From Escherichia coli (GTDB lineage: Bacteria; Pseudomonadota; Gammaproteobacteria; Enterobacterales; Enterobacteriaceae), in assembly GCF_017348835.2 (NCBI RefSeq), contig NZ_CP071375.1: 64,000 nt of DNA; one strand, given 5' to 3'. The translations under genes and the position numbers were made by a program. Of this stretch, positions 59,216-59,431 are shown one piece after another. The notes beneath the pieces are model-generated. The model ran no database searches. It was not told the DNA's origin and saw only the letters and a program-made list of their open reading frames with translations. Position 1 is the stretch's first letter, and each line of letters opens with the position of its first letter.

Positions 59216-59431
59216 TTACCGGAGTAAATCAGCGTGCCGTGGAAAATTATGCGCAGCGCTTCTGCTGATTTGCGTACCTTCGCAGATGATAAGTCCAGCA
59301 CTGGCGCGCTGCGCGTAATACTCCGCCATCATGTCAATCGTAACGTCACCCGCACCGGCGCGGGAACGCGTCATCGGTGGCAGTACAATACGGTTTATTA
59401 ATGGCAACGCATTCAGCGCATATTTAGCAAA
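59216..59431 (-). pseudogene. remnant of an Old Yellow Enzyme family NADH:flavin oxidoreductase (NemA-like N-terminal ~55 residues only)
   Basis: Reverse-strand frame reads FAKYALNALPLINRIVLPPMTRSRAGAGDVTIDMMAEYYAQRASAGLIICEGTQIS then goes out of frame; bounded upstream by an in-frame stop, no ATG. Confidence 0.55.

Follow-up and report, generated by a model that had tools for sequence, protein, structure and literature searches.

A decayed Old Yellow Enzyme gene at the edge of a LysR-regulated reductase island downstream of nadR in Escherichia coli

The classical Old Yellow Enzymes (OYE) are FMN-dependent alkene reductases. Among the members of the family whose structure has been solved, the best match to the gene discussed here, judged from its intact ortholog, is SYE1 from Shewanella oneidensis (PDB 2GOU and 4AWS; E 2.8e-138 over residues 2-364). 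SYE1 shares the N-terminal segment PPMTRSRA...YYAQRASAGLI.SEGTQIS that survives in the 64,000-nucleotide stretch of E. coli DNA that we analysed (hereafter the window), but SYE1 is complete and active, whereas the copy in the window has kept 22% of its codons (81 of 365) and has neither a start codon nor the H/N/Y catalytic motif. NemA, the N-ethylmaleimide reductase of E. coli, and the PETN reductase of Enterobacter cloacae belong to the same OYE class as the intact ortholog, whose matches to PDB 8BPP (E 8.6e-102) and to 1GVO/1H50 (E 2e-99) are more distant than that to SYE1. The score of the ortholog against the NCBIfam model of NemA (NF007899) is 396.4 bits, below the cut-off of 403, so that by NCBI's criterion it falls outside the NemA subfamily. 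An earlier note, made from the letters of the window alone, had described the remnant as NemA-like: this is correct at the level of the family, but the closest characterised relative is SYE1, not NemA. Nor is the remnant a copy of the chromosomal nemA, since it is found at a single place in each genome (blastn, E <= 1e-5).

The remnant itself is already known, in the sense that PGAP annotates an incomplete oxidoreductase pseudogene at the same locus in several RefSeq entries (among them CPH39_RS26640, LZG51_RS20710 and KZ313_RS25455). The labels are 'oxidoreductase', 'alkene reductase' or 'hypothetical protein', and the entries are described as incomplete, partial in the middle of a contig, and missing the C-terminus. 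PGAP marks 114-156 bp of the N-terminal block only, and records neither the block of codons 288-310, nor the loss of the start codon, nor the source module. To this, the present analysis adds the exact lesions and the second fragment; it also identifies the intact six-gene module and shows that the island lies within a decayed toxin-antitoxin locus. We argue below that the feature is very probably a non-functional pseudogene of a classical OYE, which was the last gene of a LysR-regulated module.

The earlier note had reported a decayed OYE fragment at 59216-59431, on the reverse strand, and its identification is well founded: besides the annotation by PGAP, the minus-strand ORF 59216-59407, of which the peptide quoted in the note is the exact translation, matches Pfam PF00724 (Oxidored_FMN) with E 6.6e-8 and 32.6 bits (cut-off 27), over profile positions 12-65 of 342. 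A related locus served to reconstruct a full-length OYE protein; when this was compared with the whole window by tblastn, residues 3-59 aligned with 59431-59261 (79% identity, E 1e-21) and residues ~287-310 aligned, in another frame, with ~59260-59194 (E 2e-5). The comparison with related genomes, which the note had proposed along with this search, located an intact copy of 365 codons in L024, a genome submitted under the name E. coli E69. At the DNA level, window 59264-59700 corresponds to L024 8174-7738 (437 bp, 97.0% identity), which covers the 3' end of the neighbouring DUF1471 gene, the spacer and OYE codons 1-58, and window 59193-59263 corresponds to L024 8931-8861, with 70 of 71 positions identical (69 of 70 over 59194-59263). 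The spacer between the two genes aligns with the same spacer in L024 and in a second related locus, L007. The full extent of the remnant is 59193-59437 (minus strand), slightly beyond what was first reported, and it consists of two pieces (Table 1), of which the note had seen the N-terminal one and missed the C-terminal one.

A continuation of the OYE C-terminus into 59138-59192, suggested by eye ('LSDLIAFW' against 'ADLIGFG') and apparently also by a low-gap-penalty alignment to L007, was ruled out by comparison with the near-identical L024 copy: the OYE 3' end scores 15.0 against the DNA beyond the C-terminal block, for a shuffle mean of 14.8, and 222 of 500 shuffles are as good. The OYE remnant therefore ends at about 59193.

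Table 1. Features of the island and of its junctions (coordinates in the window)
Feature	Coordinates	Strand	State	Remarks
RelE/ParE-family toxin gene, 3' end	58993-59022	+	last ~30 bp	alignment; tblastn VTKLLKGEV against LTKLLKGEV-stop
nadS (HTH antitoxin-like), 5' remnant	59023-59150	+	codons 1-46	10-bp deletion, frameshift, in-frame TAG
Left junction filler	59151-59192		42 bp	matches nothing
OYE pseudogene, C-terminal block	59193-59263	-	codons 288-310	out of frame with the N-terminal block
OYE pseudogene, N-terminal block	59264-59437	-	codons 1-58	of 365 in the ancestral alkene reductase gene
63-aa ORF	59216-59407	-	fortuitous, very probably not a gene	TTG start; 48 OYE residues and a 15-residue out-of-frame tail
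Spacer, DUF1471 stop to former OYE start	59438-59455	-	18 bp	old ribosome-binding site GAGGAA
DUF1471 (YdgH/BhsA/McbA family)	59456-59668	-	intact	Pfam PF07338, E 2.5e-11
SRPBCC	59826-60242	-	intact	Pfam and RefSeq annotation
SDR	60268-61065	-	intact	Pfam and RefSeq annotation
Aldo/keto reductase (AKR)	61085-62095	-	intact	Pfam and RefSeq annotation
LysR regulator	62229-63116	+	intact, divergent	Pfam and RefSeq annotation
Right junction filler	63148-63179		32 bp	
nadS, 3' end	63180-63215	+	last 36 bp, ~codons 80-91	blastn to L005 2768 onward; alignment

The lesions were defined codon by codon against the intact OYE gene of L024, to which the DNA of the remnant is 97-99% identical. The start codon ATG has become ACG (59437-59435), in agreement with the absence of a start codon pointed out earlier, and codon 2 has changed from TTA to TAA (59434-59432). 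The third lesion is an internal deletion of 686 bp between 59264 and 59263, corresponding to L024 8175-8860, by which codons 59-287 are gone and, the length not being a multiple of three, the frame is shifted; it is this deletion after codon 58 which causes the loss of frame that the note had placed right after the FMN-binding segment. No microhomology was found at the deletion junction. The fourth is the 3' truncation at ~59193, with which the last 55 codons (311-365) are lost. The 686-bp deletion removes most of the TIM barrel, including the active-site motif HGANGY (residues 183-188, with H183, N186 and Y188), and three further motifs of the intact protein, AQLWH, GIRLAP and FGRPF, are likewise in the parts that are missing. 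The sequence matches PF00724, but the complete (beta/alpha)8 barrel of about 340 residues, the catalytic His/Asn (or His/His) pair with the Tyr proton donor, and an ORF with a start codon, which a functional member of this family would have, are all absent. From what is left of the gene, the remnant is predicted to be without enzymatic activity. Homology to an intact gene, disabling lesions and the loss of purifying selection, by which a pseudogene is recognised, are found together.

The island core (the SRPBCC and SDR genes) is present in 482 of 5,426 complete E. coli genomes (~9%). The remnant occurs in 482 of these 5,426 genomes as a single piece of 239-245 bp, and all island-carrying genomes of E. 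coli have the same remnant, which is fixed among them (482/482). The deleted 686 bp, searched in all 5,426 genomes, were found in none. The four lesions are common to the three divergent E. coli alleles that were aligned, two of which carry an additional 6-bp deletion. Among carriers, the identity of the remnant to that of the window is mostly 90-95%, for 95-99% in the neighbouring SRPBCC and SDR genes. Compared with L024, the N-terminal block of the OYE gene shows 1 synonymous difference and 8 that are non-synonymous or disabling, whereas the five intact genes of the island show 62 synonymous and 8 non-synonymous ones (58 and 7 in the SRPBCC, SDR, AKR and LysR genes, without DUF1471); the difference between 62:8 and 1:8 is significant (Fisher p = 4e-6). 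As judged by these codon changes, the remnant is shown to be under relaxed selection, and the five other genes are evidently kept under purifying selection in the ~9% of complete E. coli genomes concerned.

Regarding the flank of the island, nadR (57757-58989, compared with L003 and L004) differs by 3.0-3.8% between island-carrying lineages, and the island genes by 1.7-2.8%. With nadR as divergent as the island genes, the island-plus-flank haplotypes would be old, or would recombine together.

The order of the complete six-gene module is LysR (divergent), AKR, SDR, SRPBCC, DUF1471 and OYE, the latter being the sixth and last gene. In L024, the first five genes are found with 97-100% amino acid identity, followed by the intact OYE gene, and the same six genes are present in Yokenella regensburgei with 81-95% identity. 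The alkene reductase WP_222680870.1 (365 aa; 90% cluster E. ruysiae/E. marmotae/Escherichia spp.) is the ortholog of the remnant and is encoded in a module of the same six genes, whose neighbour proteins are 97-100% identical, and which is not located in the nadR-ettA interval. The existence of an intact six-gene module elsewhere, in L024, its relatives and Y. regensburgei, implies that the module of the island did once carry a third reductase, as had been supposed from the remnant itself.

The DUF1471 gene is a conserved upstream partner of the OYE gene: the pair alone is kept in Kluyvera, Citrobacter amalonaticus and Pseudocitrobacter, and in two further loci, L007 and L008, the DUF1471 gene directly precedes the OYE gene as it does in the window. 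Full-length OYE orthologs were detected, in a scan of one genome per species, in Kluyvera, C. amalonaticus, Yokenella, Kosakonia, Pseudocitrobacter and E. coli E69; the query was a hybrid OYE built from L007 and L008. A protein search with the concatenated OYE fragments returned only short or partial proteins, two of which led to L007 and L008.

L007 and L008 come from assemblies with many split genes and were used solely for the hybrid query. Their own OYE orthologs are interrupted (L007 8001-8934, GCA_027681865.1; L008 7163-8268, GCA_000950145.1): one lacks ~50 internal codons, and the other is frameshifted. The neighbour genes are split too, and poor assembly would be as likely a cause of these breaks as real decay. 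In Providencia alcalifaciens (L028), the LysR-AKR-SDR-SRPBCC-DUF1471 genes (1104-4792; 63-86% identity) are separated from the OYE gene (8001-9098) by ~3 kb, and the module appears to be a composite of two units which are sometimes apart. Regarding the SDR gene of the window, the mechanical ORF (60268-61167, minus strand, 299 aa) starts at 61167 and overlaps the aldo/keto reductase gene; the start retained in RefSeq is internal (61065) and gives a protein of 265 aa, in agreement with the orthologs.

In all the contigs of the E. ruysiae/E. marmotae type that were examined, the module lies downstream of uspB-pitA-yhiN with a constant gene order, that is, at a different chromosomal site from the nadR-ettA interval; on its far side, some contigs have an ArsP-type permease/DUF2776 block and the others a large DUF4011 helicase gene. 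The context of CP089930.1 was established by means of searches with the flanking DNA and of Pfam-annotated contigs. The OYE protein of L024 itself falls in a 90% cluster named E. ruysiae / E. marmotae / 'MULTISPECIES Escherichia', and the core genes that flank the module in this genome (uspB, uspA, pitA and yhiN) are only ~94% identical to those of every E. coli genome. The island being 97.7% identical, against ~94% for the single flanking core stretch that was compared (uspB-uspA-pitA-yhiN), these values suggest that the module was exchanged after the E. coli and cryptic-clade lineages split. After the intact OYE gene of L024, at ~9290-9400, a fragment read by eye resembles the C-terminus of a LysR-type regulator (ELKRGELIELLPVFAGTSRPF...), which suggests that this locus also carries a gene remnant.

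In the window, serB, radA and nadR follow one another on the plus strand, with ettA and slt further right. The nadR gene ends at 58989, and an accessory block of ~4 kb fills the nadR-ettA interval, with the OYE remnant at the edge of the block, between nadR and the DUF1471 gene. The homology to the E. coli backbone stops at 59126-59137 and restarts at 63180-63230, and the block (59193-63147) is 97.7% identical at the nucleotide level to the L024 module. Both the ends of the backbone homology and the L024-like block confirm that the remnant sits at the boundary of the accessory DNA, as the note had stated. The suspected scar zone contains in addition the remnants of the toxin-antitoxin pair which hosts the insertion.

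The 5' remnant of nadS, once its frame is repaired, matches NCBIfam NF041265 (NadS) with 63.5 bits over profile positions 1-46 of 94, and is also supported by tblastn and by DNA alignment to an intact nadS; it gives no full-length match to this model in one frame, and the 3' end of the gene lies 4 kb away. Since this 3' end reappears just beyond the island, it is nadS that the island interrupts. E. coli shows at least three states of the locus. A B2-type strain (L005) has an intact, annotated RelE/ParE toxin gene and nadS after nadR, K-12-type strains (L006) have only a nadS 5' fragment downstream of nadR, and in the window, which represents the third state, the toxin gene is deleted and nadS is split by the 4-kb reductase island. 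The toxin-deletion junction is identical in the window and in K-12. A paper of 2025 (PMC12350097) reports experimental evidence, the first of its kind, for translation of the nadS fragment of K-12.

The 42-bp and 32-bp fillers have no match in the compared loci or in the rest of the window. The search for signatures of a mobile element revealed neither flanking direct or inverted repeats nor an insertion sequence at the island. Just after the stop codon of the LysR gene, window 63124-63147 forms a perfect 8-bp hairpin (GCGGGAAC-CATGA-GTTCCCGC), followed by only two T's; this hairpin coincides exactly with the right-hand limit of the DNA common to the window and the L024 module.

These observations can be assembled in the following scenario. 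The module would have come to E. coli from a cryptic-clade-like Escherichia, or from a common source, and would have entered, by illegitimate recombination, a toxin-nadS locus which was already decaying downstream of nadR. The OYE gene may have lost its 3' end upon entry or through a subsequent deletion; as for the internal deletion and the point mutations, they may have occurred afterwards, or may have travelled along with the module.

It may also be that the remnant is not inert: transcripts of the LysR-controlled operon would cross the dead OYE gene and nadS and meet the 3' end of nadR; more generally, the toxin-nadS locus would be a recurrent site of capture and decay in Escherichia. We consider this improbable. 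If true, read-through would tie expression of the NAD regulator to an electrophile-stress module. A related and slightly less probable idea is that the remnant has been kept because it works at the RNA level, as 3' UTR, terminator or sRNA of the DUF1471 operon, or because its read-through transcript acts as antisense to the 3' end of nadR and to what is left of nadS. No intrinsic terminator is predicted on either strand from the DUF1471 stop codon to nadR, so that island transcripts could enter nadR in the antisense direction, and the survival of the remnant in divergent lineages is in line with its being retained. However, the Rfam search of the remnant gave no family match, and its predicted folding is no better than that of shuffled sequences (z = -1.41); the sole promoter-like match is no better than expected by chance. 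The substitutions and the 6-bp indel that accumulate in the remnant, which lower its identity among carriers below that of SRPBCC and SDR, also argue against a conserved RNA, and short pseudogene remnants often persist without function.

The possibility that the 63-aa ORF, or a fused variant found in some strains, is an expressed small protein evolved from the OYE N-terminus, which the earlier note had itself raised against its reading, is even harder to defend. The ORF is indeed present and bears the label 'hypothetical protein' in several E. coli assemblies, and the remnant is kept in all the carriers. But the TTG at 59407 from which it would be translated is codon 11 of the old OYE gene, with no Shine-Dalgarno sequence ahead of it, and the final 15 residues are an out-of-frame reading of OYE codons. 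The frame is not conserved between alleles, whose ORFs have lengths of 52, 53, 55, 58, 59, 61, 63 and 67 aa, with a frame-fused version of 77 aa. Eight of the nine codon differences from the intact gene alter the protein, and this ratio (1:8) indicates that selection does not maintain the frame in which the 63-aa ORF is read; PGAP calls the locus a pseudogene. From these comparisons, the ORF is best described as an accident of the deletion. Last, we found no point in favour of the truncation having arisen from an intact gene through errors of sequencing or assembly, or of the similarity being due to chance, and we regard both as practically excluded by the identical architecture in 482 independent complete genomes, the lack of the 686 bases throughout the collection, the tblastn E-value and the 97-99% DNA identity to the intact copy.

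The pseudogene of a classical OYE thus described is a case of ordinary gene decay at the junction of an island, which can be fully reconstructed and involves no new mechanism. A probable reductase/detoxification module has lost one of its six genes in E. coli, and is intact elsewhere, in strains of the E. ruysiae/E. marmotae type. The remnant may serve as a lineage marker, and also as the basis for a correction of the annotation, the 63-aa ORF being listed as a protein in some assemblies.
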